A DNA stretch of 64,000 nucleotides from Amphiscolops sp. MND2022 (lineage: Eukaryota), in the NCBI GenBank assembly GCA_964187785.1, contig OZ076409.1, forward strand, positions 38,008,001 through 38,072,000, read 5' to 3'. Under the pieces are notes generated by a model. It worked only from the letters and a program-made list of their open reading frames with translations. It did not search any database and was not told the DNA's origin. Both the position numbers and the translations under genes were made by a program. Shown piece by piece: positions 1-64,000 of the stretch. The first letter of the stretch is position 1. Each line of letters opens with the position of its first letter.

Positions 1-1808
1 CCCTGTAGCATTTGGTGAAAACTTTATATCACCATTCGGTGGACCAGTGGCCCACGTTCACTTTCCAAAAGATGACCCATGTTGCTATCTGTACTGTGTC
101 AGGAGATATACATACCCGAAATGTAGTTACGATGTGACAACATGACTCTCTATAACTCTCGGACTCACCTAAAAATTCTAAATTTTTTCAGAAGCACTCT
201 ACAAGTGTACTAATAAGTTTTTGAGCGTCACCATAGCACACTGACACTTTTTGAACTTATGGTCGAAGACCGTACGGACCGTTGTTGGAGCAGAAATGGG
301 CTTTTTGTAGGTCCGAGTCGTGCAAAAAAATGCTAAATACCTCATCTTGGCCTTTTATTCACGCCATGCAGCACTTATTGAAAACTTTTTATTACCATTC
401 GGTAGACCAGTGGCCCACGTTCATTTTTGAAAAGATGACCCATAATGCTATCTGTACTCTGGCAGGAGATATGCATATCCGAAATGTTATTACGAAGTGA
501 CACCATAACTCTCTATCCCACGTAAAAATTCGAAATTCGTTCAAGAGCTACCTACACTTGTTCTGATGTGTTTTTGGGCGCCACCATGTTACACTGACAA
601 ATTTTGATCTTATGGTACGAGACCGTTCGGACCGTTCCTGAAGAGAAAATCACCATTTTGTGACTCCGAGTCGACATGAAAAATTGAAAAAAACACTTCT
701 GAGAGTTTTTTCTTTGGCAATGGCAACTAGGCTGTGTTTTTTGCATTCAATCGTTAGACCAGTGGCCAATGTTCATTTTCATAAAGATGATCCACAGTGC
801 TAACTGTACTCGGTTATGAGTAACATGATTATGAAATGTTCATACGACGTATTACATCAACTCGGACCGTGACTCAAAAAAATTAAATTTTTTCAGAGGC
901 CCCCCAGAGGTTAACCAATGTCATTTTCGGTAACGCCAAAGCTCACTGACATTGTTTGACCTGGTTGTCGGAGACCGTGCGGACCGTTGCTGGCGAGGAA
1001 TTCATATGTTTGTAAAAATGAGCTGATTTGCAAAAACTCATTCCTCACTATAAGGCATTTTTTGGCACAATCATTGCCCCAGGCCTACTTTGCGATAGTA
1101 CCGTGGGTAGACCCCAGCCCCCTGATATTTTTCATAAATATGACTTCCGCTGCTACTGGTGCTGCGTGGTGAGTAATTGAATGAAAAGTACTGTATAAAA
1201 AATTTCATCATTGCTCATCATGCCATACACCCCAAAAAATCGACTTTTTTATTACGACCACTACAGGTGTCTAAACTATATTTTTGAAACCCTCAATGAA
1301 TGCTAAACATTTTTGACATTATGGTCCGAGACCGTTCGGACCGTTTAACGTACTTAAAATGACCTATAAGTACAGGTGATACTGGTGATACTTTACATTT
1401 TGGCATTTTTTGGCACTTTCAGTGCCACCAGCGGCACTTTTTTGGCACTATCATTTGACGCGCCACATTTCACAACTTTTTGTTAGTATGCATTATTGGG
1501 CTAGCATGCACCGTGTAAAAGTTATTAAAGAAAAACGTTATATCCGAACAAAAATTCGTTATATCCGAACTTTTGTCAAAAACACCATGAAGGACAAGTT
1601 TCTGGGAAAAACGTCAGCAGAAAAAAGTTCTTAGAATTGGGAGAAATGGCCGTATGCAAATTTTCAAGGAATTCTCACGGCTCATTTAAAAAATAACCTT
1701 CCCACGCGTAGGTGTCGGGTAGTATATAGAGATCCTTATATAACGCGCTCGGTCCCGGGTCCCTCCCCGGCCTCGCACATTATTGCAGTGGGACAACACG
1801 TGACCACC
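1..1808. mobile_element. U1: right part of a family-B unit (truncated by window start)
   Basis: Nearly identical to 57622-59430 (end of U18); ends GTGGGACAACACGTGACCACC. Confidence 0.8.
1536..1570. repeat. Subterminal direct repeat CGTTATATCCGAAC x2 (21-bp period) in family-B right ends
   Basis: Also seen at about 17306-17340, 51719-51753 and 59158-59192. Confidence 0.85.
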
Positions 1809-2806
1809 CAGTGGAGGCGAGGTTGTTGCAGTTACACTGCCGAGAAGCGAGGAAAATGTGTATAGAAAGAAAAGAATTTTCAACAATAAAATTTTCGTTT
1901 TACGTTCTGTTGACAAAAGTAGTCTTTGTTGTGTTCAACGTATTTCATATTTGGCATCTCCACGACACGTGGTGCCTTACAATGCTACTTGTCACTTATC
2001 CATCAATCTGCAAGCCAACGCGACGTTCCTGCTGAATAAAAGCGATGTTCTACTTTGACAATTTACACAAAGAAAACTGGAAGAGTTTCAACATTAGAAG
2101 TAATTGTTCATTACAGTGATTAATGCCTTATAATCTCCAATAACACTCCAAATAGTGAACGTAACTGCCTCGTTATGTGGAAATGGGTGGAGAGAATTGT
2201 AAAAAAAGAAAGCTCTGTTGTGACCGAGGTGAGATGCGAAGATGACGGGACTGGCGAATTCCAAATATTGAAATTATTCACAATCGGACAGAAAAATTTT
2301 TGTGGAAGGAATTGACTGCTGGAAATTTTTGAAGTATTTTTGTGTGCCATGTGTTTGCCCAAACAATTTTCAGCTACGATAGATTTATTCCGTAGTTTTG
2401 AACCTTTCCTATCACAAGTGGCTGACTTAAATGCATTAGAAATACATACACTCCAACTCCATTTCCTTTTTTTCGCCCTATGTGACCACTGTGGAAGACA
2501 TCAACGTATGATGTAACGTACTGTCTGGTGGAGGGGTAGAGGATTTCGTGGAACCAATAGGGGTTGCCACTCATTGGTTAGATAAATGTACGTTCCACAT
2601 ACAATTCATATGTTTCAAGTTAGTTTTTATGGTATTTTTAAGCGTCACAAGGAAAGATTTATTTATTGAACACAATGGTGGTCATCGTATAGCGAATAGA
2701 AATGCTCATGTCCTGAAATTATCAATTAATGTGAGAAAGGAAAGTTGAATGAAAGTTTCCCCGCCTATTTTGAGAGTAGAGGAACTCCTGGTTTTTGGTG
2801 TTTAAA

Positions 2807-2853
2807 GTGTTAGCCTTCCAAGTTGGCCGAAGGCCAACTTGGAAGGCTATCAC
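2807..2853. other. Long internal palindrome/hairpin (22-bp stem with one mismatch, GAA loop)
   Basis: GTGTTAGCCTTCCAAGTTGGCC-GAA-GGCCAACTTGGAAGGCTATCAC. Copies or variants at 7704-7750, 13659-13706, 18575-18621, 24521-24567, 29413-29459, 34311-34357, 38596-38643, 48076-48123, 53462-53509 and 60423-60470. Confidence 0.9.
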
Positions 2854-4739
2854 GAAATTTTTATATAAACTCTTTATAAAAATGCAAGATTCAGTTATAA
2901 AGTCTTTATAAAAATGCAAATGAAATCTATATAGTCTGCGAAATCCAAGTACTGAAAAACGTATTGAGAATTTGATTACCTGCTGTGAAGTTGATTCGGT
3001 CTTTGCTAATGTATCTTTTAATGAACATTGCGTTGTAAAACATATGACACTTTTCAGACCTAACAAAGGAGTTTGGAACAACAGAAAGATTGTGCACTTT
3101 GAAAAAGATACACAGTTGATAAACCGTACTAAATTGAACTGCTCATTGATGTTTACACCATCAAATTTTTGAGTTAGAGTGCAAAAAAACCGTGACAAAT
3201 TCTTAGTACTTTGTTAAACTTTGTGTTACACAATGCTTTATGCGCCATATTTTTCCCATACACCCCTGTATGGACCTCATATTCGCAACAATGATACTAT
3301 ATTAATAGTAATTGACGGGAATTAGGTTAGATTGTTATATATTCTGTTTCTATTGTGAAAATGTGTCTTCGAAATTTTCAGTTGAAAGTTGAATTTTTCT
3401 TTGCAAAACGTGTTATCGTGGCTCACATGTCACTAAAGCATTTGATACCAGTCATATATCTCTTTTTCAGTATTTTGGAGGCCACAGGTTACGTCAAACA
3501 CAATAATGTTGTTCAAAACACGAGAAATCAGTTTTCGACCTGACAAAAATTGGGTTATTGGGGAAAAAATTTTTATTGTTACGAACGAATGGGATAAAAA
3601 ATGTGTCCAGACCAAGCATGGTTGTATTATAAACACTTTTAATGACTATAAACGAGTTGTTTGTTGTCAGTGAGGTCGTTGTTGAGCGTTAATACCATAA
3701 CCGACAAGCACCGATTAAAAAACGTGGAATGGAATATGACACATACCATGATTTTTTGAGAAGTTTCTCTTCTTATCAGTACTTTTGACATGTCGAAAGT
3801 CCTTGCATTGATTTTACAAGTCTCATATACATCTTGGTTGAGCCTCGGGTTTAGTTTTAGACCAAAAACAGTGTTGGTAGGACCGCTGATACCAAAAAAG
3901 TGGTGACACAACCGGAAAAATTCCAATGTTTAAGTCATATGTCTATTCAGTATGATATTTTTATGTACCTCAGATTCTGAAAAAGTAGCATGAAACTACT
4001 GTAGACCGTATTTTCCTAAGTAACAGTGCCACTGAGTTGCACTAAAAGCCTATAGTTGCTGCAGAAGCTCCAATTTGTCATTTCGAGTCCACCAAAAATG
4101 TGATGTTGTATCAATTTTCAACAAAATTTGCTATCGATTAGCGAATATTGTGGCACATGACTACTCGAAGTAAGGTCCTTGTGCCTTGTCAATGCCCAGT
4201 TGTATTTTTCACAAGCCACTGGGCCAAGAGAAGTGGATATTTGATGGTTGTCGGCTAAAAATGGCGTTCCTATACTTCAAAAAATGATTTGGAAAGCAAT
4301 TTCATCTTGGAATTTTGTTTGTCAACGAGGCTTTTGTACCTCAAAATTGCACTATAACCATTGTGGAAGGTCAAAATAGGTTCGACGTCAGCAGTACACT
4401 TGGTTGTGAACAAAAAAGAGTCTTGATTGACTGAAAAAGAACTTTAGCTGTTTTTGACTCAACCCATGAATCGATATGTAAGGTACGATTTTCTGTAATG
4501 TAACGTCTAATGGCAGCTGATTTTTTCGACATAACTCCAAATCCACAGTGAGCACTTTTTTCACGTTATTCACACCCCGTGTTATGCAAAAGTACATTTT
4601 AGATGGCTACTGGGCTTTAAAAACAGTTTTTGGGCACTCAAAAACATGATTTTGGAGAGAAAAAAACACGGTTCCCAATGTAATATGTAACATAGTCTGC
4701 ACGAAAACACTAAATTTTTACAGAATCATCCCACAAGTA

Positions 4740-5890
4740 AACTGATGGGTTTTTGAGCGTCACCATAGCCCACAAAAAATTTTCGACCCATTGAGTGGAG
4801 ACCGTAGAGACCGTTGTTGGCGAGCAAATGAGCTTTTTGTAAGTCCGAGTCGCCTGAAAAAATGCTATGTAACCCATGTAAGCACTTTTATCACTCCCTG
4901 TAGCAACTGGTGAAAACTTTTTATCACCATTTGGTAGGCCAGTGGCCGACGTTCACTTTCCAAGAGATGACCCATGTTGGTATCTGTACTCTGTCAGGAG
5001 ATATACATTCCCGAAATGTAGTTTCGATGTGACAACATAACTCTCTATAACTCTCGGACTCACCTAAAAAATCCAAAATTTTTCGGAAGCACTCTACAAG
5101 TGTACTGGTGGGTTTTTGGGCGTCACCATAGCACACTGACACTTTTTGACCTTATGGTCGAAGACCGTACAAACCGTTGGTGCAGCAGAAATAGGCCTTT
5201 TGTAGGTCCGAGTCGTGCAAAAAAATGCTAAATACCCCATATTGGCATATTATTCACGCCGTGCAGCAGTGACTGAAAACTTTTTCTAACCAATCGATAG
5301 ACCAGTGGCCCACGTTCTTTTTCGAAAAGGTGACCCATGATGCTATCTGTACTCTGTGAGGAGATATGCATACCCGAAATGTAGTTACGATGTGACACTA
5401 TAACTCTCGGACCCACGTGAAAATTCGAAAATCGTTCAGACGCTTCCTACCAGTGTTCTGATGTGTTTTTGGGCGCCACCATGTCACACTGACAAATTTT
5501 TATCTTATGGTACCAGACCGTTCGGACCGTTGCTGAAGAGAAAATCACATTTTTGTAACTGCGAGTCGACATGAAAAATTGAAAACAACACTTCTGAAAA
5601 TTTTTTTCTTTCACTATGGCAGCTAAGGTATATTTTTTGCACTCAATCGTTAGACCGCTGCCCAACGTTCATTTTGATAAAGATGACCCACGGTGCTATC
5701 TGTACTCGGTTATGAGTAACATGATTATGAAATGTTGATACAACGTAACAGATCAACTCGCACCGTGACTCAAAAAAATCAAATTTTTCCAGAGGCCTCT
5801 TAGAGGTCAACCGATGTCATTTTGGTCGTCACCATAACTCACTGACACTTTTTCACCTTATGGTCCGAGACCGTGCGGACCGTTCCTCCT
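4740..5890. repeat. Diverged internal ~353-363 bp tandem subrepeat of the 4.9-kb units
   Basis: Motif ATGGTC-N3-GACCGT-N3-GACCGTT (variable) recurs at 4800, 5163, 5516 and 5869, with shared blocks such as CCAGTGGCCCACGTTC and TGCTATCTGTACTC; same in U1 at 268, 621, 973 and 1330, and in all A/B units. Confidence 0.9.
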
Positions 5891-6707
5891 GGTCAAATCA
5901 TCAATTTTGTAATGGTGATACTGTTGGAAAAAATCATTTGGCACTTTTGGCCACTTTGATTGGGCCCGAGGGGAAAATTTTTTTGGACCGTTCGGTAGAC
6001 CGTTGGCCGTTGATGATTTTGCAAAATGTGCACATTGGCGGTATCTGCGTTGCTTCATGCTGAAAATGGACTCTGAATATGTGAGTGATAAATCACGTTG
6101 AATCAAAAAACCCGAAACATTGCAAATATAGGTTGAAGATGCAATTTTTCGGAAAAACGTCAGAAGAAAAAAGTTCTTAAAATTTGTTTTACTACCTGTG
6201 TGCCAAGTTTCAACGCAATCCGCGGACTTTTTGATTTTTGTCATTTTTGAAACAAATGTTGGCCAAATGTGTGCAAATTTTCGTATTCGTTAAATTTTCC
6301 GCCAATATTATCCGCCATATCTCCACTCCTGTTGCGAATTAAGAAATAATTTTTGGCATGTGTAAGCATGACATCATTTATGCCTCGCACGCAAAAAATG
6401 GGCCAAATGCATAGCGTAAAGTGTGGAGCTACTACGTGAAAAATGCGAAAAATGGCCAAAAAACACGATCATTTGCACATAACTTTTCAACAAATGTTTC
6501 AATCATGATACGTCAGGGGAAAAAAGTTCTTAGAATTTGATTTCATGTATGTGTGCAAAGTTTCATGGAAATCTAACGGTTAGATTGGAAAATCGCTTGT
6601 TTTTCTCCCGGTCTACCATGGATGCATTTTGTATATAGCGCTCGGCTCCGGGACCCTCCCCAGGCCTCGCAATGACTATTGTGGGGCAAATTAAGCCCCG
6701 GACCACC

Positions 6708-9700
6708 CAGTGGAGGCGAGGTTGTTGCAGTTACACTGCCGAGAAGCGAGGAAAATGTGTATAGAAAGATAAGAGTTTTCAACAATAAAATTTTCGTTTT
6801 CCGTTCTCTTGACAAAAGTAGTCTTTGTAGTGTTCAACGTATTTCATATTTGGCATCTCCACGACACGTGGTGCCTTACAATGCTACTTGTCACTTATTA
6901 TCCATCAATCTGCAAGCCAACGCGACGTTCCTGCTGAATAAAAGCGATGTTCTACTATAACAATTTACAAAGAAAAGTGGAAGAGTTTCAACATTAGAAG
7001 TAATTGTTCATTACAGTGATTAATGCCTTATAATCTCCAATAACACTCCAAATAGTGAACGTAAGTGCCTCGTTATGTAGAAATGGGTGGAGAGAATTGT
7101 AGAAAAGAAAGCTCAGTTGTGACCGAGCTGAGATGCGAAGATGACGGGACTGGCGAATTCCAAATATTGAAATTATTCACAATCGGACAGAAAAGTTTTT
7201 GTGGAAGGAATTGACTGCTGGAAATTTTTGAAGTATTTTTGTGTGCCATGTGTTTGCCCCAATAATTTTCAGCTACGATAGATTTATTCCGTAGTTTTGA
7301 ACCTTTCCTATCACAAGTGGCTGACTTAAATGCATTAGAAATATATACACTCCAACTCCATTTTTTTTTTTGCCCTATGTCACCACTGTGGAAGGCATCA
7401 ACGTATGATGTAACGAACTGTCTGGTGGAGGGGTAGAGGATTTCGTGGAACCAATAGGGGTAGCAACTCATTGGTTAGATAATTGTACGTTCCACATACA
7501 ATTCATATGTTTCAAGTTAGTTTTTATGGTATTTTTGAGCGTCACAAGGAAAGATTTATTTATTGAACACAATGGTGGTCATCGTATAGCGGATAGAAAA
7601 GCTCATGTCCTGAATTTATCAAGTAAGGTGAGAAAAGAAAGTTCAATGAAAGGTTCCCCGCATATTTTGAGATTAGAGGAACTCCTGGTTTTTGGTGTTT
7701 GTAGTGTTAGCCTTCCAAGTTGGCCGAAGGCCAACTTGGAAGGCTATCACGAATTTTTTTTATAAACTCTTTATAAAAATGCAAGATTCAGTTATAAAGT
7801 CTTTATAAAAATGCAAATGAAATCTATATAGTCTGCGAAATCCAAGTACTGAAAGACGTATTGAGAATTTGATTACCTGCTGTGAAGTTGATTCAGTCTT
7901 TGCTAATGTATCTTTTAATGAACATTGCGTTGTAAAACATATGACACTTTTCAGCCCAAACAAAGGAGTTTGGAACAACAGAAAGATCGTGCACTTTGAA
8001 TAAGATACACAGTTGATGAACCGTACTAAATTGAACTGCTCATTGATGTTTACACCATCAAATTTTTGAGTTAGAGTGCAAAAAAACCGTGACAAATTCT
8101 TAGTACTTTGGTAAATTTTGTGTTACACAATGCTTTATGCGCCATATTTTTCCCATACACACCTGTATGGACCTCATATTCGCAACAATGATACTCTATT
8201 AATAGTAATTGACGGGAATTAGGTTAGATTGTTATATATTCTGTTTCTATTGTGAAAATGTGTCTTCGAAATTTTCAGTTGAAAGTTGAATTTTTCTTTG
8301 CAAAACGTGTTATCGTGGCTCACATGTCACTGAAGCATTTGATACCAGTCATATATCTCCTTTTCAGTATTTTGGAGGCCACAGGTTACGTCAGACACAA
8401 AAATGTTGTTCAAAACACGTGAAATCAGTTTTCGACCTGACAAAAATTGGGTTATTGGGGAAAAAATTTTTATTGTTACAAACGAATGGGATAAAAAATG
8501 TGTCCAGACCAAGCATGGTTGTATTATAAACACTTTTAATGACTATAAACGAGTTGTTTGTTGTCAGTGAGGTCGTTGTTGAGCGTTAATACCATAACCG
8601 ACAAGCACCGATTAAAAAACGTGGAATGGAATATGACACATATCATGATTTTTTGAGAAGTTTCTCTTCTTATCAGTACTTTTGACATGTCGAAAGTCCT
8701 TGCATTGATTTTACAAGTCTGATATACATCTTGGTTGAGCCTCGGGTTTAGTTTTAGACCAAAAACAGTGTTGGTAGGACCGCTGATACCAAAAAAGTGG
8801 TGACACAACCGGAAAAATTCCAATGTTTAAGTCATATGTCTATTCAGTATGATATTTTTATGTACCTCAGATTCTGAAAAAGTAGCATGAAACTACTGTA
8901 GACCGTATTTTCCTAAGTAACAGTGCCACTGAGTTGCACTAAAAGCCTATAGTTGCTGCAGAAGCTCCAATTTGTCATTTCGAGTCCACCAAAAATGTGA
9001 TGTTGTATCAATTTTCAACAAAATTTGCTATCGATTAGCGAATATTGTGGCACATGACTACTCGAAGTAAGGTCCTTGTGCCTTGTCAATGCCCAGTTGT
9101 ATTTTTCACAAGCCACTGGGCCAAGAGAAGTGGATATTTGATGGTTGTCGGCTAAAAATGGCGTTCCTATACTTCAAAAAATGATTTGGAAAGCAATTTC
9201 ATCTTGGAATTTTGTTTGTCAACGAGGCTTTTGTACCTCAAAATTGCACTATAACCATTGTGGAAGGTCAAAATAGGTTCGACGTCAGCAGTACACTTGG
9301 TTGTGAACAAAAAAGAGTCTTGATTGACTGAAAAAGCAGTTTAGCTATTTTTGACTCAACCCATGAACCGATATGTAAGGTACGATTTTCTGTAATGTAA
9401 CGTCTAATGGCAGCTGATTTTTTCGACATAACTCCAAATCCACAGTGAGCACTTTCTTCACGTTACTCACACCCCATGTTATGCAAAAGTACATTTTAGA
9501 TGGCTACTGGGCTTTAAAAACAGTTTTTGGGCACTCAAAAACATGATTTTGGAGAGAAAAAAAACACGGTTCCCAATGTAATATGTAACATAGTCTGCAC
9601 GAAAACACTAAATTTTTACAGAATCATCCCACAAGTAAACTGATGGGTTTTTGAGCGTCACCATAGCCCACAAAAAATTTTCGACCCATTGAGTGGAGAC

Positions 9701-11601
9701 CGTACAGACCGTTGTTCGCGAGCAAATGAGCTTTTTGTAAGTCCGAGTCGCCTGAAAAAATGCTATGTAACCCATGTAAGCATTTTTATCACTCCCTGTA
9801 GCAACTGGTGAAAACTTTTTATCACCATTCGGTAGGCCAGTGGCCCACGTTCACTTTCCAAAAGATAACCCATTTTGGTATCTGTACTGTGTCAGGAGAT
9901 ATACATTCCCGAAATGTAGTTACGATGTGACAACATAACTCTCTATAAGTCTCGGACTCACCTAAAAAATCCAAAATTTTTCGGAAGCACTCTACAAGTG
10001 TACTGGTGGGTTTTTGGGCGTCACCATAGCACACTGACACTTTTTCACCTTATGGTCGAAGACCGTACGGACCGTTGGTGGAGCAGAAATGGGCCTTTTG
10101 TAGGTCCGAGTCGTGCAAAAAAATGCTAAATACCCCATCTTGGCATAATATTCACGCCGTGCAGCAGTAATTGAAAACTTTTTATAACCAATCGATAGAC
10201 CAGTGGCCCACGTTCTTTTTCGAAAATGTGACCCATGATGCTATCTGTACTATGTGAGGAGATATGCATACCCGAAATGTAGTTACGATGTGACACTATA
10301 ACTCTCGGACCCACGCAAAAATTCGAAATTCGTTCAGAAGCCTACTACCAGTGTTCTGATGTGTTTTTGGGCGCCACCATGTCACACTGACAAATTTTGA
10401 TCTTATTGATCGAGACCGTTCGGACCGTTCCTGAAGAGAAAATCACATTTTTGTAACTCCGAGTCGACATGAAAAATTGAAAACAACATTTCTGAAAACT
10501 TTTTTCTTTCACTATGGCAACTAAGGTATATTTTTTGCACTCAATCGTTAGACCGCTGCCCAATGTTCATTTTGATAAAGATGACCGACGGTGCTATCTG
10601 TACTCGGTTATGAGTAACATGATTATGAAATGTTGATACAACGTAACGGATCAACTCGGACCGCGACTCAAAAAAATCAAATTTTTCCAGAGGCATCTTA
10701 GAGGTCAACCAATGTCACTTTGGTCGTCACCATAACTCACTGACACTTTTTCACCTTATGGTCCGAGACCGTGCGGACCGTTCCTCCTGGTCAAATCATC
10801 AATTTTGTAATGGTGATACTGTTGGAAAAAACCTTTTGCCACTTTTGGCCACTTTGATTGGGCCCGAGGGGAAAATTTTTTTGGACCGTTCGGTAGACCG
10901 TTGGCCGTTGATGATTTTGCAATATGTGCACATTGCCGGTATCTGCGTTGCTTCATGCTGAAAATGGACTTTGAATATGTGAGTGATAAATCACCTTGAA
11001 TCAAAAAACCCGAAATATTGCAAATATAGGTTCAAGATGCAATTTTTCGGAAAAACGTCAGGAGAAAAAAGTTCTTAGAATTTGTTGTACTACCTGTGTG
11101 CCAAGTTTCAACGCAATCCGCGGACTTTTTAATTTTTCTCATTTTTCAAACAAATGTTGGCCAAATATGTGCAAATTTTCGTAAATATTGAATTTTCCGC
11201 CAATATTATCCGCCATATCTCCACTCCTGTTGCGAATTGAGAAATAATTTTTGGCATGTGCAAACATGACATCATTTATGCCTCGCACGCAAAAAATGGG
11301 CCAAATGCATAGCGTAAAGTGTGGAGCTGCTGCGTGAAAAATGCGAAAAATGGCCAAAAAACACGATCATTTGCACATAACTTTTCAACAAATGTTTCAA
11401 TCATGATACGTCAGGGGAAAAAAGTTCTTAGAATTTGATTTTATGTATGTGTGCAAAGTTTCATGGAAATCTAACGGTTAGATTGGAAAATCGCTTGTTT
11501 TTCTCCCGGTCTACCATGGATGCATTTTGTATATAGCGCTCGGCTCCGGGACCCTCCCCAGGCCTCGCAATGGTACGTGTGGGGGACCACCCCGGACCAC
11601 C
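6708..11601. mobile_element. U3: family A1 unit, 4,894 bp
   Basis: Near-identical to U2/U6; ends GGGGGACCACCCCGGACCACC. Confidence 0.8.
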
Positions 11602-41116: not shown

Positions 41117-41159
41117 AAGTACATTCTCATCTCCCCCGATGGGGAGATGGAATGTACTT
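41117..41159. other. Long palindrome in U12 (19-bp stem, one bulged T)
   Basis: AAGTACATTC-T-CATCTCCCC-CGAT-GGGGAGATG-GAATGTACTT. Confidence 0.85.
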
Positions 41160-41447
41160 AAGTGTTTCTTGTTATCTGATGGTTAAGATTGGACATATTC
41201 AATTGAGATTTCGATGAAACTAAGGTTCTATTTACGTATCATCACACCTGAACCTTTTAGGAAGCTCACATTCAAAACATCTATTAAATTAATAATCGGT
41301 AATATTAAAAAAATGAACAGGGTATATATCTGAAATGATTCGCTTCTTATATGGAACATGATTATTATTTATGGTATGGAATTCTTGCCAAAAAAGACGT
41401 TTTTTATTATAACCCAAACGATTGGCAGTACCTGGTTTGGTATCATA

Positions 41448-51992: not shown

Positions 51993-53061
51993 TAGCGATG
52001 GAGCGATTTAGAGCACTGCTAGTAAAAGGCCTAAACTTAACAGCGCAACCTTTGCTAATGGAGTATGAAAAAGAAATATTGAGGCTAGCAATTTTTTGTA
52101 AGTTATTCTGGGATTGAACGATAAATATCATCACCCTGACGAGTGAATGTCCATGGTGACTGCCGTCAACTTAACTCAAGGGATTTTGTGGTTTTTGCTT
52201 TCTAAGCAAGCACCGTTGTTCCTGCGAGATGCTGCGCAACTCTCGGAACACCGGTGACAATAAATTTTGCTGATCGATTTGCAATAACCTAATCATCACT
52301 TTGAGGCATTTTTTGGCACAACTTATGCCCTAGGGCTGTTTTGCTCGATACAGAGGGTAAACCCCAGCCCCATAATCAGTTTCAAGTTTGCTGCAGCTGC
52401 TTCCTGTGCTGCATCATATCCAACTGAAAGTGATACAATTATTTCTCATCCAATCACTCATAATGACATATACCCCAAAAAATCAACTTTTTTCTGATGT
52501 CTCCCACAGGTGAACGAATTACATTTTTGGAACCCCCATTGGATGCTGACAATTTTTGACCTTATTGTCCGAGACCGTGCGGACCGTTCCGGCTGCTCAA
52601 ATCATCAATTTGATCAAAGTGATTCAGTCAAAAAAAATATTTTGGCACTTTTCGGCACTTTGGTTTCCCCCGGGGGAAATTTTTTCGGACCGTTCGAAAG
52701 ACCGTTGACCGTTGATGAATTTCACAAAAGTGCACTTTGCCGCTACGGGCTTTCCTTCATGGTGAAAATGGCCTTTGATTCGGTCATTGATTAATCAAAG
52801 ATGAAAAAAGATGAAAAAAAACCAAAAAAACGCAAAAAAACCCTACAAAATGAATTTTCCTGGAAAAACGTCAGCGGAAAAAAATTCTTAAATTTTTGAG
52901 ATAAAGCCACATGCAAAGTTTCAGACAAATCCTACGGGTGAATTTCGAGATCGGTTAAAATACTTCGCAATCCTGAAGGTAGGAATTGATAGAATGTGCT
53001 CGGCTCTCGGGACCCTCCCCGGCCTCGCAATATTTTCTGATGGGCATCCCCCTTGACCACC
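51993..53061. mobile_element. U16: family C unit, 1,069 bp
   Basis: Near-identical to U4/U14. Confidence 0.8.
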
Positions 53062-55050
53062 TAGCTGCTACCGCGGTAGTGACCGCGGAGGGCGCTATTT
53101 TTGGCATACGTCGTCGAAGGGCATGCCTCGGCATGCCCACAGACGGTGGACGTCGCAACACTTTGTGGCGTTGTACTAATGTCTGGATGTGGCAGTAGGA
53201 AGTTGATGAGCCTAATAACACTGGAAAATTGGAAAATAAAAAAGTTAAAGACTCAATTGTTTATAATATAAATTTTTTTGATAATTTTTTTGAACATAAA
53301 ACATATGAAAAAGACTTCGAGTTCATAAGTTTTTATCAAATACTGAATACAATCGTCTGGTGACCTGATGGAATATACTAACGGTAGTATAGAATCACAA
53401 AACAAGGTATCGACAGCAATATCCAATAAACAAAAAGTCTTTTTGTTGAAAGTTTTTTGATGTGATAGCCTTCCCAAGTTGACACAAGGCCAACTTAAAA
53501 GGCTATCACAAAATTCAGTTAACAGGTACTTGAAAAATTTGCAAAACTTGTCCAGCCAGGATCGTCGAAAGAGCACATGTCAGCATTGTGAGTGGCATTT
53601 TTAATCCTTTTGGGTCCGTAAGGTCGCGTTAGAAGTATTTAAAGAGTATTTAGACACAATTATCCCGGTTCTATCTCAGCAAAATCGCCTATTTTTTAGT
53701 TTCGGTTTTTTTTCCGGCTACAAATGTAACACATTCGAAGGGAATTATTTCGGAAAACGAAAGAGATGAAAGTTTCTGATCAACCACAGTGCTCATCTAT
53801 ATTGTAAACTTTGAATAAAGTAGTTGAAAGTATTTTGTCAAATTATTTTTTCCTGATAATGGGCTAAAAGTTTTGGAAAACACAGTAGTATATAGGAAAA
53901 AAATGTCTCATACCACCCCTTGAGCAACCCGATGCATTCAAAAACCTCATTATAGTGCTGAAACGCACCCTACGCATTCTGTGCCATTAATGACTGACAA
54001 AAATGAGTAAATTTTTGGTGAAATCACATTTCACAGTGATCGCTGGCTTGCGAGATCTTTACCTCAATTGAGACGTATTGCTCAAAATAACGTCTTATCG
54101 CGACTCATATGTTATTGGAGCCATTGGTACCAGTGCCAATGGTGTTTTTGAGTATCATGGGCCCCACTGGTTACGTCAGAGTAAATAATTTTGCTTTAAT
54201 AGCTGAATTTTAATTTTCGACCTGACAAAAAATGGGTATTTGGGTCGAAAATTTTCTAAGTTATGTTCCGAATGTCTGAAAAATGACTGAAGACCGGGTG
54301 AAAAAAATTTTTTAACCTTTTATATTACTATAAATGGTTGCTACGTTGCCAGTGGGACCGTTCTAGAACATTAAGGCTATAGCCGACAAGCCTCGATGAA
54401 AATATTATGTTCAAAATGACCATTTTGTAAATTAATACTAAGTTGAGAAATCCTTGTGAAACGCTTATGACCCCGAAAAAATTTTTATTTTCACATTGGA
54501 TGCAAACTGTTGGGTGTTTGGCTGCGAGTAGGTTCCGACAGAAACCATGGATACCAAGGTTTCCAATTTAAAGCAAATAAAAATTTTTTTCTGAGGTGTT
54601 TTTGACATATGGGGTACTGATAGTAGTGAAAAAAATTTCAAAAATGTCGAATTTTCAAAAAACGTAAAATTTTTACATCTTTTGTGTTCAGTCCAATGCC
54701 CCAGCCACGAAATGAAGGTTCCAAGCTTGTTTCACAGTCAAAGTCCAAAAATTAACACATTTTGAGTTATCAGCGACTTTGTTAAAATTTTCCTCATTTT
54801 ACCCTTCTAGGTGAATGACAAATCGGCCATAACTTTTTATAAAACATTTACATCGCAAAACGTCAGCAGGAACTTCGTCTCGTATGGCCATTTCAGGGCC
54901 GCATGCAAAAAATGGTGAAATTCGTATGGTTAAATAAAAAAATAGCTCGTTTGACATGCCGTTTTCTACTAGGAGGATTTTGATTTTGGACGGCCGGCAG
55001 GACCCGACCCGCCGGCCGATTTTTTTGTTGGGGAATTACCCCCGCCCACC
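53062..55050. mobile_element. U17: family D unit, 1,989 bp
   Basis: Colinear with U11; last ~300 bp match U12's right end (GGGGAATTACCCCCGCCCACC). Confidence 0.8.
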
Positions 55051-58000
55051 CAGCGGAGGTAATTAGAGCACTACTAGAGGGCGGCCTAAAGCAAAGGATG
55101 AGACGTTTGTTTATAAAGATTGCAAATCTTTCTTGTACATTCCGCTACCTGTTTTGGTTCAATTTTTCATGGAATCAACTATAAAATTCATCACCAGCAT
55201 GCCACAGAATTGACAACAATGAAGGCAGTTGAAACAAAGACAAGGTATTTTGAGCTTTTCCTTGAAGCAGACTCCGTTGATCATGCAAGATGATGCAAAC
55301 CTCGAAACACCATTGCTATAACATCAGTGACAATGAAACTTTTCTACAAATGAAATTGTCACTAATGCAGAGCGATTTCTTCAAATCCTTGGTAATGTTA
55401 GGATACAAAGTAATGGCCATTGAGGTGGTTAGTATTGGATCAAAACACCGCATTCCACCCCCATTCGAATGCGATGACATAGGAGAAGAGGTGAAACTTT
55501 GACTCACCCTTCAGAAATTAAACAACAAACGAGAAGAATTTTTAAAAAAGATTTCATTTACAAGATTCATTTATTAGTTATAAGCTCGTTCCAAAAATGC
55601 ATGGTTCAATGTGAATCGTATAATAAGCAAACGTAATCAATGTGAGTAGGTTGTCAAGTCAATAGAGTGTGCAAAGTGAAAGTAGTGAGAATGGAATTTT
55701 ATTTAGTTACTATAAAGTTGCTTCAGTCTTTGCTAATTCAACATTTAAGGAACATTGCTTGTAAAACAAATGACTCTTTTCAGCAGTAACAGAGGAGTTT
55801 GGAACAACGGGAAGATCAAAGACTTTGAAACAGATCCACAGTTGTATAACCCTACTAATTCAACTGCTGATTAATGTTTACATTATCAAGTTTTAGAGGG
55901 AAACTGCTAAAATTCTGATGATAATATTTTAGTACTATGGTAAGTTTTGTGTTACACAATGCTTTATTCACCACAGTTTGCATATTCAACCCTCTGGAGA
56001 CCCCATATTCGCAACACTGATGCTATATTATTAGTCATTGACGGGAAGTACGTAAGTTTTTATTTTATTCTGTTTTTATTGTGAAAATGTGTCATCGAAA
56101 TTTTTACTTGAAAGTTGAATTTTTCTTTGCGAAACGTGTTTTTGTGGCTCACATGTCACTGAAGCCTTTGATACCAGTAATACATCTGTTTTTCAGTATT
56201 TTGGAGGCCACAGGTTACGTCAGACACAATAATGTTGTTCAAAACACCGGAAATCAATTTTTGACCTGACAAAAATTGGGTTTTTGTGGAAAAAATTTTT
56301 CTTGTTAAGAACGAATGGGATGAAAAATCTGTCCAGACCGAGCATGGTTGTATTATAAAAACTATTTATAACACTAAACAAGTTGTTTGGTGTCTGTGAG
56401 GTCGTTGTTGAGCGTTAATACCATAACCGACAAGGACCGATGAAAAAAAGCATAATGGAACGTGACAATTAACAGAAATTTTTGGGAAATATCTCCTCTC
56501 ATCACTACTTTTGACATGTCGAAATTCCTTCCATTGATTTGTGAAGTCTGGTATCTACCTTGGTTGATCCTCCGGTTTAGTGTTAGACCAAAAACAGCCC
56601 TAGTAAGGCAGCCGATACCAAAAAAAGTGGTAACACATCCGGAAAAAAGCTGAAGTTGTAAACATGCGTCTACTCAGTTTGATATTTTTAGGCACCTCAG
56701 ATTCTGAAAAACTACCTTGAAAGTTCTGTAAACATCATTTTCATAAATTAGAGTGCTCGTGGGTTGTATTAGAAGCCAATAGTTGGTGATAAAGCTGCAT
56801 TTTGTCAATTCGACTCCGCCAAAAATGTGATATTGTATGAATTTTCGACAAATTATCCTATCGATTAGTAAATATTGTTGCCCATGACTACTCGAATGAT
56901 AGTGTCAGTGTCATGTCAATGCCCAGTTGCGTTCTTTCTATGCCACTGGACGAAGAAAACAGGTTAGTTGATGTTTGTGGGCAAAAATTGGCGGTCCTAT
57001 ACTTCAAAAACTGAATTGGAAACAAACTTTTGGTTGGATTTTTGTTTGTCAACGGGGCTTTTGGCAATAAAAATCACAATATAACCTCTCTGGAAGGTCA
57101 ATATGTGTTTCACGTCAGCTGTACACTTGGTTGTGAACAAAAAAGAGTCTTGATTCACTGAAAAAGCACTTTAGCTATTTTCCAATCAACCAAAGTATCG
57201 ATATGTACAGTATCATTATCTCTTGTGTAACGTCTAATGGCAGTTGATTTTTTAAAAATGACTCCAAAATCACAGTGGCCACTTTGCTTATGCTATCCAC
57301 GTGCCATGTTATGCAAAACAACATTTTATGTGGCTATTGTAATTTAAAAATTGATTTTGGGCACTGAAAAACATGTTTTTTGGGTGAAAAATTGTTTTTC
57401 GAAACCCAAAATCTCACTTTGTGAGCACGAAAAATCCAAATTTTTACAGAAGCATGCTACAGTTAAACTGATGGGTTTTTGGGCGTCACCATAGCTCAAG
57501 AAAAATTTTCTACCTTATGGACGGAGACCGTACAGACCGTTGTTCGCGAGCAAATGACCTTTTTGTAAGTCCGAGTCGCCTGAAAAAATGCTATGTAAAG
57601 CATGTAAGCACATTTATTACTCCCTGTAGCATTTGGTGAAAACTTTTTATCACCATTCGGTGGACCAGTGGCCCACGTTCACTTTCCAAAAGATGACCCA
57701 TGTTGCTATCTGTACTGTGTCAGGAGATATACATACCCGAAATGTAGTTACGATGTGACAACATGACTCTCTATAACTCTCGGACTCACCTAAAAATTCT
57801 AAATTTTTTCAGAAGCACTCTACAAGTGTACTAATAAGTTTTTGAGCGTCACCATAGCACACTGACACTTTTTGAACTTATGGTCGAAGACCGTACGGAC
57901 CGTTGTTTGAGCAGAAATGGGCTTTTTGTAGGTCCGAGTCGTGCAAAAAAATGCTAAATACCTCATCTTGGCCTTTTATTCACGCCATGTAGCACTTATT

Positions 58001-59430
58001 GAAAACTTTTTATTACCATTCGGTAGACCAGTGGCCCACGTTCATTTTTGAAAAGATGACCCATAATGCTATCTGTACTCTGGCAGGAGATATGCATATC
58101 CGAAATGTTATTACGAAGTGACACCATAACTCTCTATCCCATGTAAAAATTCGAAATTCGTTCAGGAGCTACCTACACTTGTTCTGATGTGTTTTTGGGC
58201 GCTACCATGTTACACTGACAAATTTTGATCTTATGGTACGAGACCGTTCGGACCGTTCCTGAAGAGAAAATCACCATTTTGTGACTCCGAGTCGACATGA
58301 AAAATTGAAAAAAACACTTCTGAGAGTTTTTTTCTTTGACAATGGCAACTAGGCTGTGTTTTTTACACTCAATCGTTAGACCAGTGGCCAATGTTCATTT
58401 TCATAAAGATGACCCACAGTGCTAACTGTACTCGGTTATGAGTAACATGATTATGAAATGTTCATACGACGTATTACATCAACTCGGACCGTGACTCAAA
58501 AAAATTAAATTTTTTCAGAGGCCCCCCAGAGGTTAACCAATGTCATTTTCGGTAACGCCAAAGCTCACTGACATTGTTTGACCTGGTTGTCGGACACCGT
58601 GCGGACCGTTGCTGGCGAGGAATTCACATGTTTGTAAAAATGAGCTGATTTGCAAAAACTCATTCCTCACTATAAGGCATTTTTTGGCACAATCATTGCC
58701 CCAGGCCTACTTTGCGATAGTACCGTGGGTAGACCCCAGCCCCCTGATACTTTTCATAAATATGACTTCCCCTGCTACTGGTGCTGCGTGGTGAGTAATT
58801 GAATGAAAAGTACTGTATAAAAAATTTCATCATTGCTCATCATGCCATACACCCCAAAAAATCGACTTTTTTATTACGACCACTACAGGTGTCTAAATTA
58901 TATTTTTGAAACCCTCAATGAATGCTAAAAATTTTTGACTTTATGGTCCGAGACCGTTCGGACCGTTTAACGTGCTTAAAATGACCTATAAGTACAGGTG
59001 ATACTGGTGATACTTTACATTTTGGCATTTTTTGGCACTTTTAGTGCCACCAGCGGCACTTTTTTGGCACTATCATTTGACGCGCCACATTTCACAATTT
59101 TTTGTTAGTATGCCCATTTGGGCTACCGTGCACCGTGTAAAAGTTATTAAAGAAAAACGTTATATCCGAACAAAAATTCGTTATATCCGAACTTTTGTCA
59201 AAAACACCATGAAGGACAAGTTTCTGGGAAAAACGTCAGCAGAAAAAAGTTCTTAGAATTGGGAGAAATGGCCGTATGCAAATTTTCAAGGAATTCTCAC
59301 GGCTCATTTCGAAAATAACCTTCCCACGCGTAGGTGTCGGGTAGTATATAGAGATCCTTATATAACGCGCTCGGTCCCGGGTCCCTCCCCGGCCTCGCAC
59401 ATTATTGCAGTGGGACAACACGTGACCACC
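55051..59430. mobile_element. U18: family B unit with ~0.5 kb internal deletion, 4,380 bp
   Basis: Colinear with U5 except that the segment equivalent to about 13175-13706, including the long hairpin, is missing near 55550-55561. Confidence 0.8.
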
Positions 59431-62400
59431 CAGTGGAGGTAATTAGAGCACGACTAGAGGGGCGGGGGAAGCCTAAGCAAATGGAAGAAGGACGTTTGAT
59501 ACTAAAGATTGAAATACTTTGTTGTACTTCCTGCTACCTGTTTTAGTATGCCATGGGAACAAAGATAAACTTCATCATCACTATGATACAGAATTGACAA
59601 TGGTGAAGGCCGTTAAAACAAAAATAGGGTATCCCGAGAAGTCCCTTACAACCAGGCACCGTTCATCCTGAGAGATGCTGCGAACCTCGATCCACCTCTG
59701 ACAATGACATAAGTGACAATGAAAATTTTCTACAAATGAATTTGTCGCAATTACTGAAGGATTTGCTGAAATCCTTAGTAATATTAGAATAGAATGTGGT
59801 GGTGGTGGTGGTGGTGGTGGTGGTGGTGAATGAGGTTACTATTGTTTTAAAAGACTCTACTCAAATCCGGATCATATGCGAGAAGACGTGAGATGTTGAC
59901 TCACCATTTGAGTTTACATTGCAATCGGGAAAAAATGAAAAATTTTTACATTGTAACAATTTTTGAAAACGGTTTGTGTTATGCGGAGCTACTTTTTGAT
60001 GGAACTATTATTAAACGTGAAAACTTTTTACCACGATACTTCGCTGACTTTAAATGAATTTTAATGAACACTCCATTCGAGTTTTATAGCGCTTTCAACC
60101 CACGAAAGAAAGCTTTCAATACAAGATGTAACAAATTGACAAATCGAGGAGATACGGGCTTCCCTGAAGCTGATGAAGAAGACAAATGTTAAATTGAGTG
60201 GACATTCTACATACAATTCACAAATTTTGCCCAAATTGTTTCAGGTATTTTTCGAAAGACACAAAGAAAAAATGTGGTCTCTGAATTCTAAGGTGATGAA
60301 CATATACGAAAAGAACATGTCAGCTAATTACATGTTATCAACTCCAGAAATCATGGATGGTTGGACAATATTGTCTACAGCTAAATTAGAAGACAAGGGT
60401 GTCTTGTTTTTTGTTTTTTGTAGTGATAGCCTTGCCAAGTTGACACAAGGCCAACTTGGAAGGCTATCACAAGTTTCAGGTAAAAGCTGTTTCCTGAATT
60501 GGTTTAATGTGAATCGTATAATAAGCAAACGCGATAAATGTGAGTAGGTTGTCAAATCTATAGAGTCCGTAAAGTGCAAGTAGTGAGAGACGTATTGGGA
60601 ATTTGGTTAGCTACTATAAAATTGATTCAGTCTTTGCTAATTTATCTTTTAATGAACATTGCTTGTTAAACATATAACTCTTTTCAGCCGTAACAAAGAA
60701 GTTTGGAACAACGGGAAGATAAGAGACTTTGAAACATGTCCACAGTTGTATAACCCTAGTGAATGAACTGCTGATTGATGTTTACAGTATCAACGTTTTA
60801 ATAAAAAGTGCAAAAAATCTAGTGAAAAATTTTCAGTACTCTAGAAAGTTTGGTGTTACACAATGCTTTATGCACCGCAGTTTTCACATAGACCACTCTA
60901 TAGACCTCATCTTCACAACACTGATACTATGTTATTAGTAAGTGGCGGAAAATAGGTTAGTTTTTATGTATTCTGTTTTTATTGTTAAAATGTGTCTTCG
61001 AAATTTTCACCGGAAAGTTGAATTTTTCTTTGCAAAACGTGTTATCGTAGCTCACAAGCCACTGAAGCATTTGACACCAGTCATATACCTATTTTTGATT
61101 ATTTTGGAGGCCACAGGTTACGGCAGACACAATAATGTTGTTCAAAACACGAAAATTCAATTTTCGACCTGACAAAAATTGGGTTTTTGGGGTAAAAAAA
61201 ATTTCATTTTGAGAACGAATGGGATAAAAAATGTGTCAAGACCAAGCGTGGTAGTGTTTTTTATACTTTTTATAAGTGTAAACAAGTCGTCTGCTGCCGG
61301 TGAGCTTGTGTTGAGCGTTAATACCATAACCAACAAACACCGATTAAAAAAGGTCCCATGGAATGTTGCAAATAACCGGAACTTTCGGGCATAATCTCCT
61401 CTAGTGACTACTATTGACATGTCGAAATTCCTTGCATTGTTGTTACAAGTCTGGTATGCACTTTAGTTGATCCTCGGGTATAGTGTTAGACAAAAAACAG
61501 TCTTAGTGTGACCGCCGATACCAAGAAACTGGTGATACATCCGGAAAAATGCTGAAGTTGAAGTCATGCGTCTGTACAGTATGATATTTTTAGGTATCCC
61601 AGACTCTGAAAAATGACCTTGAAACTTCTATAAACATCGTTTTCCTAAATTACAGTGCCTGTTGGTTGCTCTAGAATTCAATAGTTGCTGATAAAGCTCC
61701 ATTTTGTCAATTCGACTCCACCAAAAATATGATGTTGTATCAATTTTTGACGAATTTCATTGTTGAAAAGGAAATATTGTTGCCCATGACTACTCGACTT
61801 ATAGTGTATGTGCCTTGTCAAAGCCCAGTTGTGTTTTTAACATGCCAATGGACTAACAGAGGTGGATAGTTGATGTTTGTGGGCAAAAATTGGTAGTCCT
61901 ATACGTCAAAAAATACTTTGGAAACAAATTTTATCTTGAAATTTTGTTCCTCAACGGGGCTTTTGCCACTCAAAATTGCAATATAACCAATCTGGAAGGT
62001 CAAATTGTGTTCCACGTCAGCTGTACACTTGGTTGTGACCAAAACAGTGTCTTGATTGAGTAAAAAAGCACATTAGCTAATTTTCATTCAACCCATATAT
62101 CGATATGTGAGGTATCATTTTCTGATGTGTAACGTCTAACGGCAACTGATTTTTTAAAAATGAATCCAAAATCACTGTGGGCACTTTCCTCATGCTACTC
62201 ACGTGCCATATTATGCAAAACAACATTTTATGTGACTATTGTGATTTAAAAATTGAATTTGGGCACTGAAAAACATGTTTTTTGGGTGAAAAATTGTTTT
62301 TCAAAACCCAAAATCTCACGTTGTGAGCACGAAAATTCCAAATTTTTACAGAAGCATGCTAAAGCTAAACTGATGGGTTTTTAGGCGTCACCATAGCTCA

Positions 62401-64000
62401 CAAAAATTTTTTGACCTTATGGACGGAGACCGTACAGACCGTTGTTCGCGAGCAAATGACCTTTTTGTAAGTCCGAGTCGCCTAAAAAAATGCTATGTAA
62501 CCCATGTAAGCACTTTTATCACTCCCTGTAGCAACTGGTGAAAACTTTTTATCACCATTCGGTAGGCCAGTGGCCCACGTTTACTTTCCAAAAGATGACC
62601 CATGTTGCTATCTGTACTCTGTCAGGAGATATACATACCCGAAATGTAGTTACGATGTGACAACATAACTCTCTATAACTCTCGGACTCAACTAAAAAAT
62701 CGAAATTTTTTCAGACGCACTCTACAAGTCTACTGTTAGGTTTTTGGGCGTCACCATAGCACACTGACACTTTTTGACCGTATGGTCGAAGACCGTACGG
62801 ACCGTTGGTGGAGCAGAAATGGTCTTTTTGTGGGTCCGAGTCGTGCAAAAAAATGCTAAATAACCTATCTTGGCATATTATTCACGCCATGCGGCACTTA
62901 TTGAAAACTTTTTGTAACCATTCGATAGACCAGTGGCCCACGTTCATTTTCGAAAAGATGACCCATTATGCTATCTATACTCTGGCAGGAGATATGCATA
63001 CCCGAAATGTTGTTACGATGTGACACCATAACTCTCGGACCCACGTAAAAATTCGAAATTTGTTCAGAAGCTTCCTACAAGTGTTCTGATAGGTTTTTGA
63101 GTGCCACCATGTTACACTGACATTTTTTGACCTTATGGTCCGAGACCGTGCAGACCGTTCCTGTGGAGCAAATCACCATTTTGTAACTCCGAGTCAACTT
63201 AAAAAATTCAAAATACCACTTCTGAGAATTTTTTTCTTTCGCAACGGCAACTAGGCTATGTTTTTTGCACTCAATCGTTAGACCGCTGCCCAATGTTCAT
63301 TTTGATAAAGATGACCCACGGTGCTATCTGCGCTCGGTCATGAGAAACATCATCATGAAAAGTTCATACAACGTATGAGATTAACTCGGACCGTCACTCA
63401 AAAAAATTAATTTTTTTCAGAGGTCCCCCAGAGGTTCACCAATGTCATTTTCGGTGTCGCCATAGCTCACTGACATTTTTTGATCCTTATGTCGGAGACC
63501 GTGCGGACCGTTGTTGGCGAGGAATTCACATGTTTGCAAAAATGAGCTGATTTTCAAAAACTCATTCCTCACTATAAGGCATTTTTTGGCACCACCATTG
63601 CCCCAGGCCTACTTTTCGATAGTACCGTGGGTAGACCCCAGCCCGCTGATCTTTTTCATATATATGACCTCCGCTGCTACTGGTGCTGCGTGGTGAGTAA
63701 TTGAACGAATAGTACATAATAAAAAATTTCATCCTAGCTCATCATGCCATACACCCCAAAAAATCGACTTTTTTATTATGTTCCCCCCAGGTGTAAAAAT
63801 TATATTTTTGAATCCCTCATATAAAGCTGACAACTTTTGACTCTATGGTCCGAGACCGTTCGGACCGTTTAACGTGCTCAAATCGACTTATAAGTAAAGG
63901 TGATACTGGTGATACTTCACATTTTGGCATTTTTTGGCACTTTGAGTGCCCCGATTGGCACTTTTTTGGCACCATCATTTGACGCGCCACAATTAACAAC
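59431..64000. mobile_element. U19: family B unit, truncated by window end
   Basis: Starts CAGTGGAGGTAATTAGAGCAC; colinear with U15 up to the equivalent of about 51655, predicting an end about 330 bp beyond the window. Confidence 0.8.
59796..59828. repeat. (GTG)11 microsatellite
   Basis: Direct reading; absent at the homologous site in U5, U15 and U18. Confidence 0.95.

Follow-up and report, generated by a model that had tools for sequence, protein, structure and literature searches.

How does a stretch of DNA come to consist of units of several families, joined end to end at one short motif and all facing the same way? This question is raised by 64,000 nucleotides of the genome of Amphiscolops sp. 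MND2022 (C1:38.008-38.072 Mb, contig OZ076409.1; assembly of 1.07 Gb), which we refer to as the window, and which a preliminary description had presented as a cassette-like array of independently mobile units, each inserting exactly at an existing junction and regenerating it. We propose, with a probability of about 0.7, that these units are non-autonomous members of a divergent Helitron-like lineage that prefers its own end-to-end junction as a target.

Composition of the array

The motif CCACC(C/T)AG occurs 18 times on the plus strand of the window (1804 to 59426) and is absent from the minus strand, against an expectation of 0.72 per strand, and all 18 sites are unit junctions, dividing the window into 19 units in a single orientation. 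All-against-all BLAST recovered the unit order B,A1,A1,C,B,A1,E,A2,A2,A1,D,D-long,C,C,B,C,D,B,B just as first described, with 18 exact junctions, no spacers and no nesting, and the pairing of ends is indeed combinatorial, with 14 of 25 possible family pairs present at the 18 junctions. The reported lack of terminal inverted repeats also holds, the longest exact inverted repeat between unit ends being 5-8 nt in the 17 complete units (8 in one only). Two of the initial statements need amendment. The families and their order stand, but the families are related rather than independent, i.e., A and B are 82% identical over 3.1 kb, C and A are 75% identical over 0.42 kb, and a single end architecture is common to all of them. 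The motif, although present at every junction in the window, is not strictly invariant, since GCACCTAG is frequent as a junction variant elsewhere.

The window is free of genes, as had been claimed, in that it contains no open reading frame (ORF) longer than 163 aa, no Rfam match, and no tblastn match or coding remnant when compared with the transposase and accessory proteins described below. The units in the window are non-coding and non-autonomous. A fixed higher-order satellite or an assembly artefact is a further conceivable explanation, and the evidence used here is an assembly rather than reads, with one flip of orientation (locus L022) falling at a 200-N gap. We regard this explanation as negligible, since the copies in the window are all distinct (96-98% identity among A1 copies), their order is aperiodic, a related array has precise host boundaries within the collinear CFAP69 gene, and the genome holds many distinct copies with intact ORFs. 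The array is real.

Position of the break and structure of the ends

The C/T position of the junction motif goes with the right-hand unit at 18 of 18 window junctions and with the left-hand unit at 12 of 18 (permutation p 9e-5). We extended this comparison to 81 junction-like sites, one of which is probably false and nine of which were chosen by likeness to an A junction, and a single variant was present for each end type (A, 15; B, 6; C, 6; D, 20; D2, 4), with E consistent at 8 of 9. Genome-wide, family A ends carry CCAG 68 times and CTAG never, and CTAG is present in all of the 100 D-type junctions listed out of 1732. Because the variant follows the right-hand unit, the break must lie inside the CCACC(C/T)AG motif. 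Read on the strand that encodes the transposase, the element is thus 5'-GTGG/GTGC...CTRG-3' and sits 3' of a CTRG, with the last G of CTRG assignable to either side of the break. On this strand CTAG or CTGG is found at 18 of 18 window junctions. For example, at 6703..6710 (minus strand) CTRG is followed by GTGG, as at all 18 sites, and the nick is inferred to fall between the two, or one base earlier.

Junctions with host DNA follow the same pattern. A solo copy of 1.4 kb (L020) and an array of ~16 kb in an intron of CFAP69 (C1:29.528-29.544 Mb; L025, L026), with collinear exons on both sides, each show precise ends, a host-side CTRG and no target duplication, in agreement with the original statement that target-site duplications are absent. 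We class the CFAP69 array as a tolerated founder insertion. At host boundaries, too, CTRG precedes the GTGG end (L020, L025), and the host letters that follow the CTRG end vary (TTGG, GACT, GTCA, ACCA, TACT, AATC). GTGG ends preceded by a letter other than G numbered 2, compared with 1 for the control. Some array boundaries were not counted as clean, namely those on the right at L016 and L021 and on the left at L072, where the adjoining sequence may be host DNA or diverged units, and a candidate 86-bp mini-element at L015 was rejected, as it is the ordinary terminus of a longer unit that has degenerated.

The GTGG end contains two hairpins, as illustrated at 6632..6706 (minus strand), where the inner hairpin has a conserved AGGG loop and the whole is a putative origin. 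The arms of the inner hairpin are family-specific and covary, and in 18 non-redundant ends out of 45 the hairpin arms of this end pair better with their own partners than with swapped ones (-7.68 versus -5.64 +/- 0.29 kcal/mol; 0 of 2000). The CTRG end, for example 6707..6751 (minus strand), has a short hairpin upstream of CTRG, a putative terminator, which is strong in D types and weak or absent in B and C; 10 of 34 non-redundant ends give a folding z below -2. Among A1 copies that are 97% identical, the outer hairpin of the GTGG end is variable, and its variants (window 6670-6702, 11568-11596, 33276-33308 and 38174-38202) are common to A1 and A2, which suggests that the last ~35 bp may have been exchanged between these subfamilies.

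The opposite polarity has to be considered, i.e., that the non-coding strand is nicked and moved (CCAC^CYAG), with the CYAG end as origin and the double-hairpin end as terminator. Sequence alone does not discriminate between the strands, IS91 likewise uses the strand opposite its transposase gene, and reversed ORF orientation is described for some HLE2 elements in parts of PMC3627910 and PMC5148889. Against this, a coding-strand 3' CTRG fits the CTRR end of HLE1 elements, and Helraiser moves the coding strand (excerpts of PMC5876387); the two-hairpin end adjoins the host tetranucleotide as oriIS does (excerpts of PMC13181058) and is the more conserved end across families. We consider reversed polarity rather unlikely, and it is compatible with self-targeting, differing only in the strand that moves. 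A related proposal, that the ORF runs against the direction of the element as in IS91, was dropped, as the C/T rule puts CTRG at the 3' end of the coding strand.

Autonomous elements and their proteins

The preliminary description had suggested that a longer copy sharing these ends and encoding an HUH/Rep-helicase or a recombinase be looked for. Copies with a Rep-helicase exist: gaps of 13-20 kb between junctions, inside arrays of this kind, are long units of 13-19 kb with the same ends, and the three that we read are bounded by array-type junctions and encode, on the strand opposite to CCACCYAG, large ORF1 proteins of 2816, 2853 and 2377 aa, followed downstream by ORFs of ~200 aa (ORF2) and ~330 aa (ORF3). 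Both large proteins scanned with Pfam contain Helitron_like_N, PIF1 and a C-terminal GIY-YIG domain, with a sub-threshold OTU domain in one, and the PDB matches of the transposase are Pif1 helicases and SLX1. Its HUH and two-tyrosine (YxxKY) motifs align with those of other Helitrons. The transposase thus has the arrangement Rep (HUH, two Tyr)-Pif1 helicase-GIY-YIG, of which the fusion of Rep with Pif1 (RepHel) characterizes the Helitron-like superfamily, and we hold its Helitron-like identity to be nearly certain. One autonomous unit is ~4 kb longer than the others and carries a second, partial OTU-like transposase start between RepHel and ORF2 (L011:7321-8169, minus strand).

The initial analogy with integrons or att-site accretion is not borne out. 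A tyrosine or serine recombinase would account for exact junctions, a single orientation and the lack of duplication, but the long units encode RepHel, none of the 9 ORFs scanned in the three of them has a Pfam recombinase match, and the junction motif is divided asymmetrically between neighbours; we therefore give recombinase-driven accretion almost no weight. From the presence of RepHel and the lack of a recombinase in the scanned ORFs it follows that the chemistry is single-strand nick-and-join.

Many of the autonomous copies appear intact. Of 566 transposase candidates in the genome, 80 were scored, and none of these had a stop in the match, with 62 lying in open frames of at least 2200 aa. 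The predicted fold of ORF3 reached a predicted local distance difference test (pLDDT) score of 77 when built from 11 sequences (31 when built from 3) and matches the OB folds of RPA and CST, with a best Foldseek E of 2.7e-4, the sole match under 0.001, and a VIA Z of 7-7.9 for residues 1-132, a middling score. On the basis of this structural match, ORF3 is probably a single-strand binding protein with an RPA-like OB fold; it has no Atlas match. ORF2 has no match in Pfam, PHROGs or PDB, and Atlas gives a lead to GDSL/SGNH hydrolases (score 0.90, with the family on 41% of members).

In two cases, termini are common to a non-autonomous and an autonomous copy. In unit E, ~600 bp of the GTGG end are 87-89% identical to two autonomous RepHel elements at C1:3.59-3.63 Mb, and an autonomous element on C2 shares 759 bp at 94% identity with a 1.04-kb unit of the window's array located just past the window.

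Evidence for and against self-targeting

Several observations point to the junction itself as the preferred target. D-type ends abut another element in 1732 cases and were found outside junctions in 3, a count whose search pattern omits ends with A at the tested place, about a quarter of cases (the end at L026 being one), and which to that extent tells less strongly for self-targeting; the 3 still carry CTAG or CTAA. CTRG occurs at ~9.5 per kb in five flanks, so a bare four-base target would scatter copies. The relatedness of left and right neighbours at A junctions is uncoupled (rho -0.006 over 56 pairs, which are not independent, a further weakness, with 1.3 kb compared on each side), and the two sides have the same nearest relative in 5 of 15 cases. 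In addition, one autonomous family is present on C1, C6 and C8 with identical termini and different neighbours on both sides.

Other observations weigh against this interpretation. Families form local runs, a trio of 1.26-, 2.0- and 4.8-kb units is repeated at C1:3.495-3.511 Mb, and two pairs of loci (L002/L003 and L007/L009) are related on both sides of the junction, from which we conclude that block copying also occurs; because of it, the ratio of 1732 to 3 is inflated. The assembly on which this work is based shows neither an insertion event nor a circle or an empty allele. Autonomous partners of A, B, C and D were not found, the similarity to autonomous copies being short and confined to the ends, and inspection by eye of the 80 listed transposase positions with A-family ends gave no A-type autonomous copy. 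Folding of whole ends is mildly better than that of shuffled sequences (mean z of -0.86 for 35 GTGG ends and -0.68 for 34 CTRG ends), and B-type CTRG ends have no hairpin. Termini and arrays could be defined in no other organism, the 21 metagenome loci examined lacking multi-copy boundaries.

These points bear on the most serious competitor, in which the same transposons recognize a CTRG four-mer or a chromatin state, found arrays from a few seeds, and enlarge them by rolling-circle concatemers, terminator read-through and unequal crossover, with later exchange of junctions that mixes the families. Single-family local runs, the repeated three-unit block and the two locus pairs with relatives on both sides are what such growth would produce, and rolling-circle amplification into tandem Helitron arrays is reported in parts of PMC5148889, PMC5876387 and PMC11934779. 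However, concatemers predict homogeneous runs, yet the window has 14 of 25 family pairs in its 18 junctions; the two sides of A junctions are uncoupled; the copies of one autonomous family differ in both neighbours across three contigs; and a four-mer at ~9.5 per kb predicts many dispersed copies, of which few were counted. We therefore consider growth without self-targeting unlikely, and insertion into existing junctions likely to be a main builder of the arrays. The initial claim that mobile units join at and regenerate the junction has indirect support from the C/T rule, the counts of D-type ends and the unit-wise mixing of families, with the correction that some multi-unit blocks have been duplicated.

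Self-targeting could proceed as follows. The transposase would bind the double-hairpin GTGG end and nick after CTRG; one strand would be peeled off, the process halting at the element's own CTRG, and a circle would form with a junction identical to those of the arrays. This circle would insert 3' of a CTRG, with a strong preference for CTRG followed by a GTGG end, i.e., an existing junction. Each insertion would yield two junctions, and all families served by these transposases would therefore accumulate head to tail, facing the same way. New arrays would be seeded when, rarely, an element inserts at a bare host CTRG, and read-through or host recombination would additionally copy multi-unit blocks. 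The SLX1-like GIY-YIG domain may open or resolve the target, which is a guess.

Units of the window

All 19 units lie with their coding strand on the minus strand. Family A1 is represented by unit 2 (1808..6706, 4899 bp, with internal repeats of ~363 bp), unit 3 (6707..11600, 4894 bp), unit 6 (17578..22475, 4898 bp) and unit 10 (33313..38206, 4894 bp), and family A2 by the adjacent units 8 (23524..28416, 4893 bp) and 9 (28417..33312, 4896 bp). Family B includes two partial units at the edges of the window, unit 1 (1..1807, non-autonomous, with its coding-strand 5' GTGG end at 1807) and unit 19 (59430..64000, ending ~330 bp past the window), together with unit 5 (12672..17577, 4906 bp), unit 15 (47095..51991, 4897 bp) and unit 18 (55050..59429), which at 4380 bp is ~0.5 kb below other B units and is shortened near the CTRG end. 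The shorter units belong to family C (unit 4, 11601..12671, 1071 bp; unit 14, 46015..47094, 1080 bp; unit 16, 51992..53060, 1069 bp), to a C subfamily 87-89% identical to other C units (unit 13, 44945..46014, 1070 bp), and to family E (unit 7, 22476..23523, 1048 bp). Family D comprises unit 11 (38207..40184, 1978 bp) and unit 17 (53061..55049, 1989 bp), and unit 12 is D-long (40185..44944, 4760 bp), in which a tandem repeat of 336 bp occupies 41448-42714.

Unit lengths cluster at ~1.05, 1.29, 1.98, 4.76 and 4.9 kb when the window units and five further loci (L017, L019, L024, L027, L028) are taken together, even between families that are alike only at their ends, such as C and E (both ~1.05 kb). 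Internal repeats measure 336 and 363 bp in units and ~170 bp in flanking fragments. A constraint of size or nucleosome spacing is a possible reason for this clustering of unit and repeat lengths. A and B units contain a near-palindrome of ~47 bp (window 2801-2849 and equivalents), ~1 kb away from their CTRG end, to which D has a partial match.

Genomic distribution

The array of the window starts near C1:37.908 Mb, and its junctions continue to at least 38.159 Mb. The pattern of one end type has 2056 matches in the genome, compared with 3 for a control pattern. Of the 80 transposase copies that were scored, 32 lie at C1:70.5-76.5 Mb, without exception on the same strand, and junctions in that orientation were present in 6 of 6 two-kb samples; by this sampling the region is an array domain of about 6 Mb. 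Further clusters are located at C2:102-103.9 Mb and C3:2.4-3.9 Mb, both with the two orientations in blocks, and also on C4-C10. Together with the C1 domain, those on C2 and C3 are the largest arrays; the one on C2 extends as far as the end of its contig (103.9 Mb), and the one on C3 lies near a contig start. At L022:3473-3672 the 200-N gap separates oppositely oriented parts of an array, and this flip may be a scaffolding effect.

BEL/Pao long terminal repeat (LTR) elements with 98% identical LTRs lie ~0.1-0.4 kb from the edges of two arrays (L021:424-9433 and L023:2228-8676), one of these edges being that at which the window's array begins. An additional ORF of 199 aa in the L023 element has no Pfam match and looks SGNH-like from its motif. 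Canonical HLE1 and several HLE2-like families are likewise present in this assembly (L031-L036, L058-L063); two RepHel proteins encoded on small contigs (L062, L063) show strong divergence and may derive from another organism.

Relationship to described Helitrons

A search with the Rep region returned 171, 426 and 792 clusters (50% identity) at E thresholds of 1e-30, 1e-10 and 1e-3. Among 116 matches of at least 1500 aa, a helicase was present in 101 and GIY-YIG in 78, several of the remainder being incomplete. Of 21 metagenome loci, 3 have the OB-fold gene next to that of the transposase; most of the others are short contigs. No relatives were confirmed in IMG/VR or PLSDB, none were found in GTDB genomes with single-protein patterns that reach close relatives only, and a scan of IMG/VR for HLE2 reference rows returned none.

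In an unrooted tree of Rep plus helicase with 59 rows (31 of this group, 21 HLE1 and 7 HLE2-like, six further rows being left out for failed motif extraction or a missing helicase), the group forms one side of a branch with a Shimodaira-Hasegawa-like approximate likelihood ratio test (SH-aLRT) support of 100, and the same split is found in Rep-only and helicase-only trees when two long rows are excluded. The transposase falls outside the HLE1 rows in all three trees and outside the 7 HLE2-like rows, all of which come from this assembly. We assigned the HLE1 and HLE2 labels from motifs that we take to be diagnostic. The rows were chosen by similarity to seeds, with all 21 HLE1 rows from one seed; the tree search was of the 'quick' type, and the program flagged long branches. 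The placement outside HLE2 thus applies to these 7 rows, which include no published HLE2 subgroup, no HelenSM92 and no unclassified HELIANO cluster.

A literature search, with Repbase and Dfam outside its scope, found nothing on this lineage, its termini or junction-targeting Helitrons, so that the initial failure to recognize a described family is upheld for the lineage and termini, although the units do belong to the Helitron-like superfamily. Excerpts of the HELIANO study (PMC11417382) describe HLE1 by TC...CTRR termini and A^T insertion, HLE2 by inverted repeats and T^T insertion, and mention four or more clusters left unclassified as well as a GIY-YIG domain in one HLE2 family of moss; the sequences of that study may include this group. 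Helitron variants are treated in parts of PMC3627910, PMC5148889, PMC8788227 and PMC6431247, and arrays in parts of PMC11934779, PMC12692304 and bioRxiv 10.64898/2026.09.17.752431. We think it probable that this is a separate lineage that has yet to be described. The chances are about even for the wider proposal that it is a third major Helitron-like lineage, widespread and unclassified, with GIY-YIG and its own RPA-like gene, that lands on its own end-to-end junction, and of which dozens of families share this site and form arrays of a single orientation, as long as ~6 Mb, in which many transposases stay intact.

Significance

The two groups into which Helitrons are divided insert at A^T or T^T and show little specificity beyond that, and the way in which a target is selected and joined has yet to be settled. 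With its defined target, regenerated at each insertion, and its thousands of natural junctions, the present lineage would make this step directly testable, and would offer a route to megabase, heterochromatin-like arrays besides satellite turnover. Such elements may escape repeat annotation, as Helitron_like_N scores 29-46 bits here compared with ~205 for canonical copies. If self-targeting is true, the arrays are a self-made safe harbour and a eukaryotic counterpart of IS91 targeting, and the elements are natural, site-specific and repeatable integrators of cargo of 1-19 kb; if it holds in cells, they are candidates for stacking DNA cargo at one chosen site.

Comparison with known systems

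The elements resemble HLE1 elements such as Helraiser in RepHel, YxxKY, the lack of target duplication, an RPA-like gene downstream of RepHel, non-autonomous derivatives and a coding-strand 3' CTRR, which in HLE1 often follows a hairpin; the predicted circle junction would likewise join the 3' end to the 5' end. They differ in a 5' GTGG/GTGC end with two hairpins in place of TC, in a position 3' of CTRG where HLE1 lies between A and T, in the C-terminal GIY-YIG, and in mixed-family arrays where HLE1 copies are dispersed. With HLE2 (Helitron2, Helentron, proto-Helentron) they share a large RepHel that ends in a nuclease and in some copies begins with an OTU domain, hairpins at the two ends in some families and, with proto-Helentron, a CTAG end. 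Unlike HLE2, they have as a rule no asymmetric inverted repeats of 8-15 bp and no T^T insertion, and both proteins scanned have GIY-YIG instead of the AP endonuclease of Helentron, with a different Rep motif III. HelenSM92, an HLE2 element with GIY-YIG, has inverted repeats and TT sites in excerpts of PMC11417382, and is set apart by this description, not by protein comparison.

Outside Helitrons, IS91, IS801 and IS1294 share HUH rolling-circle chemistry and a tetranucleotide target that adjoins an ori end with two palindromes, and the target of IS801 and IS1294 is the ter cleavage tetranucleotide (parts of PMC13181058); by analogy, CTRG lies here on both sides of the element. The IS91 family is prokaryotic, its transposase is small and lacks a helicase, and multi-family megabase arrays are not described for it in the portions of the literature covered. 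Helitron arrays of plant centromeres and cnidarian subtelomeres likewise form large head-to-tail blocks, but are presented in part of PMC11934779 and, through citing papers, from Xiong et al. 2016 as one locally amplified family or truncated concatemers, whereas the arrays described here alternate between many families, intact autonomous elements included, at exact junctions. Replitrons are also eukaryotic HUH transposons that insert in fixed orientation 3' of a short target, and differ, according to excerpts of PMC10288648, in a Y1 Rep without helicase and in direct terminal repeats, compared with a Y2 Rep fused to Pif1 here. By these comparisons, the elements lack one or more defining features of each of HLE1, HLE2, IS91 and Replitrons, and would combine a target logic resembling that of IS91/IS1294 with a 3' end resembling that of HLE1.

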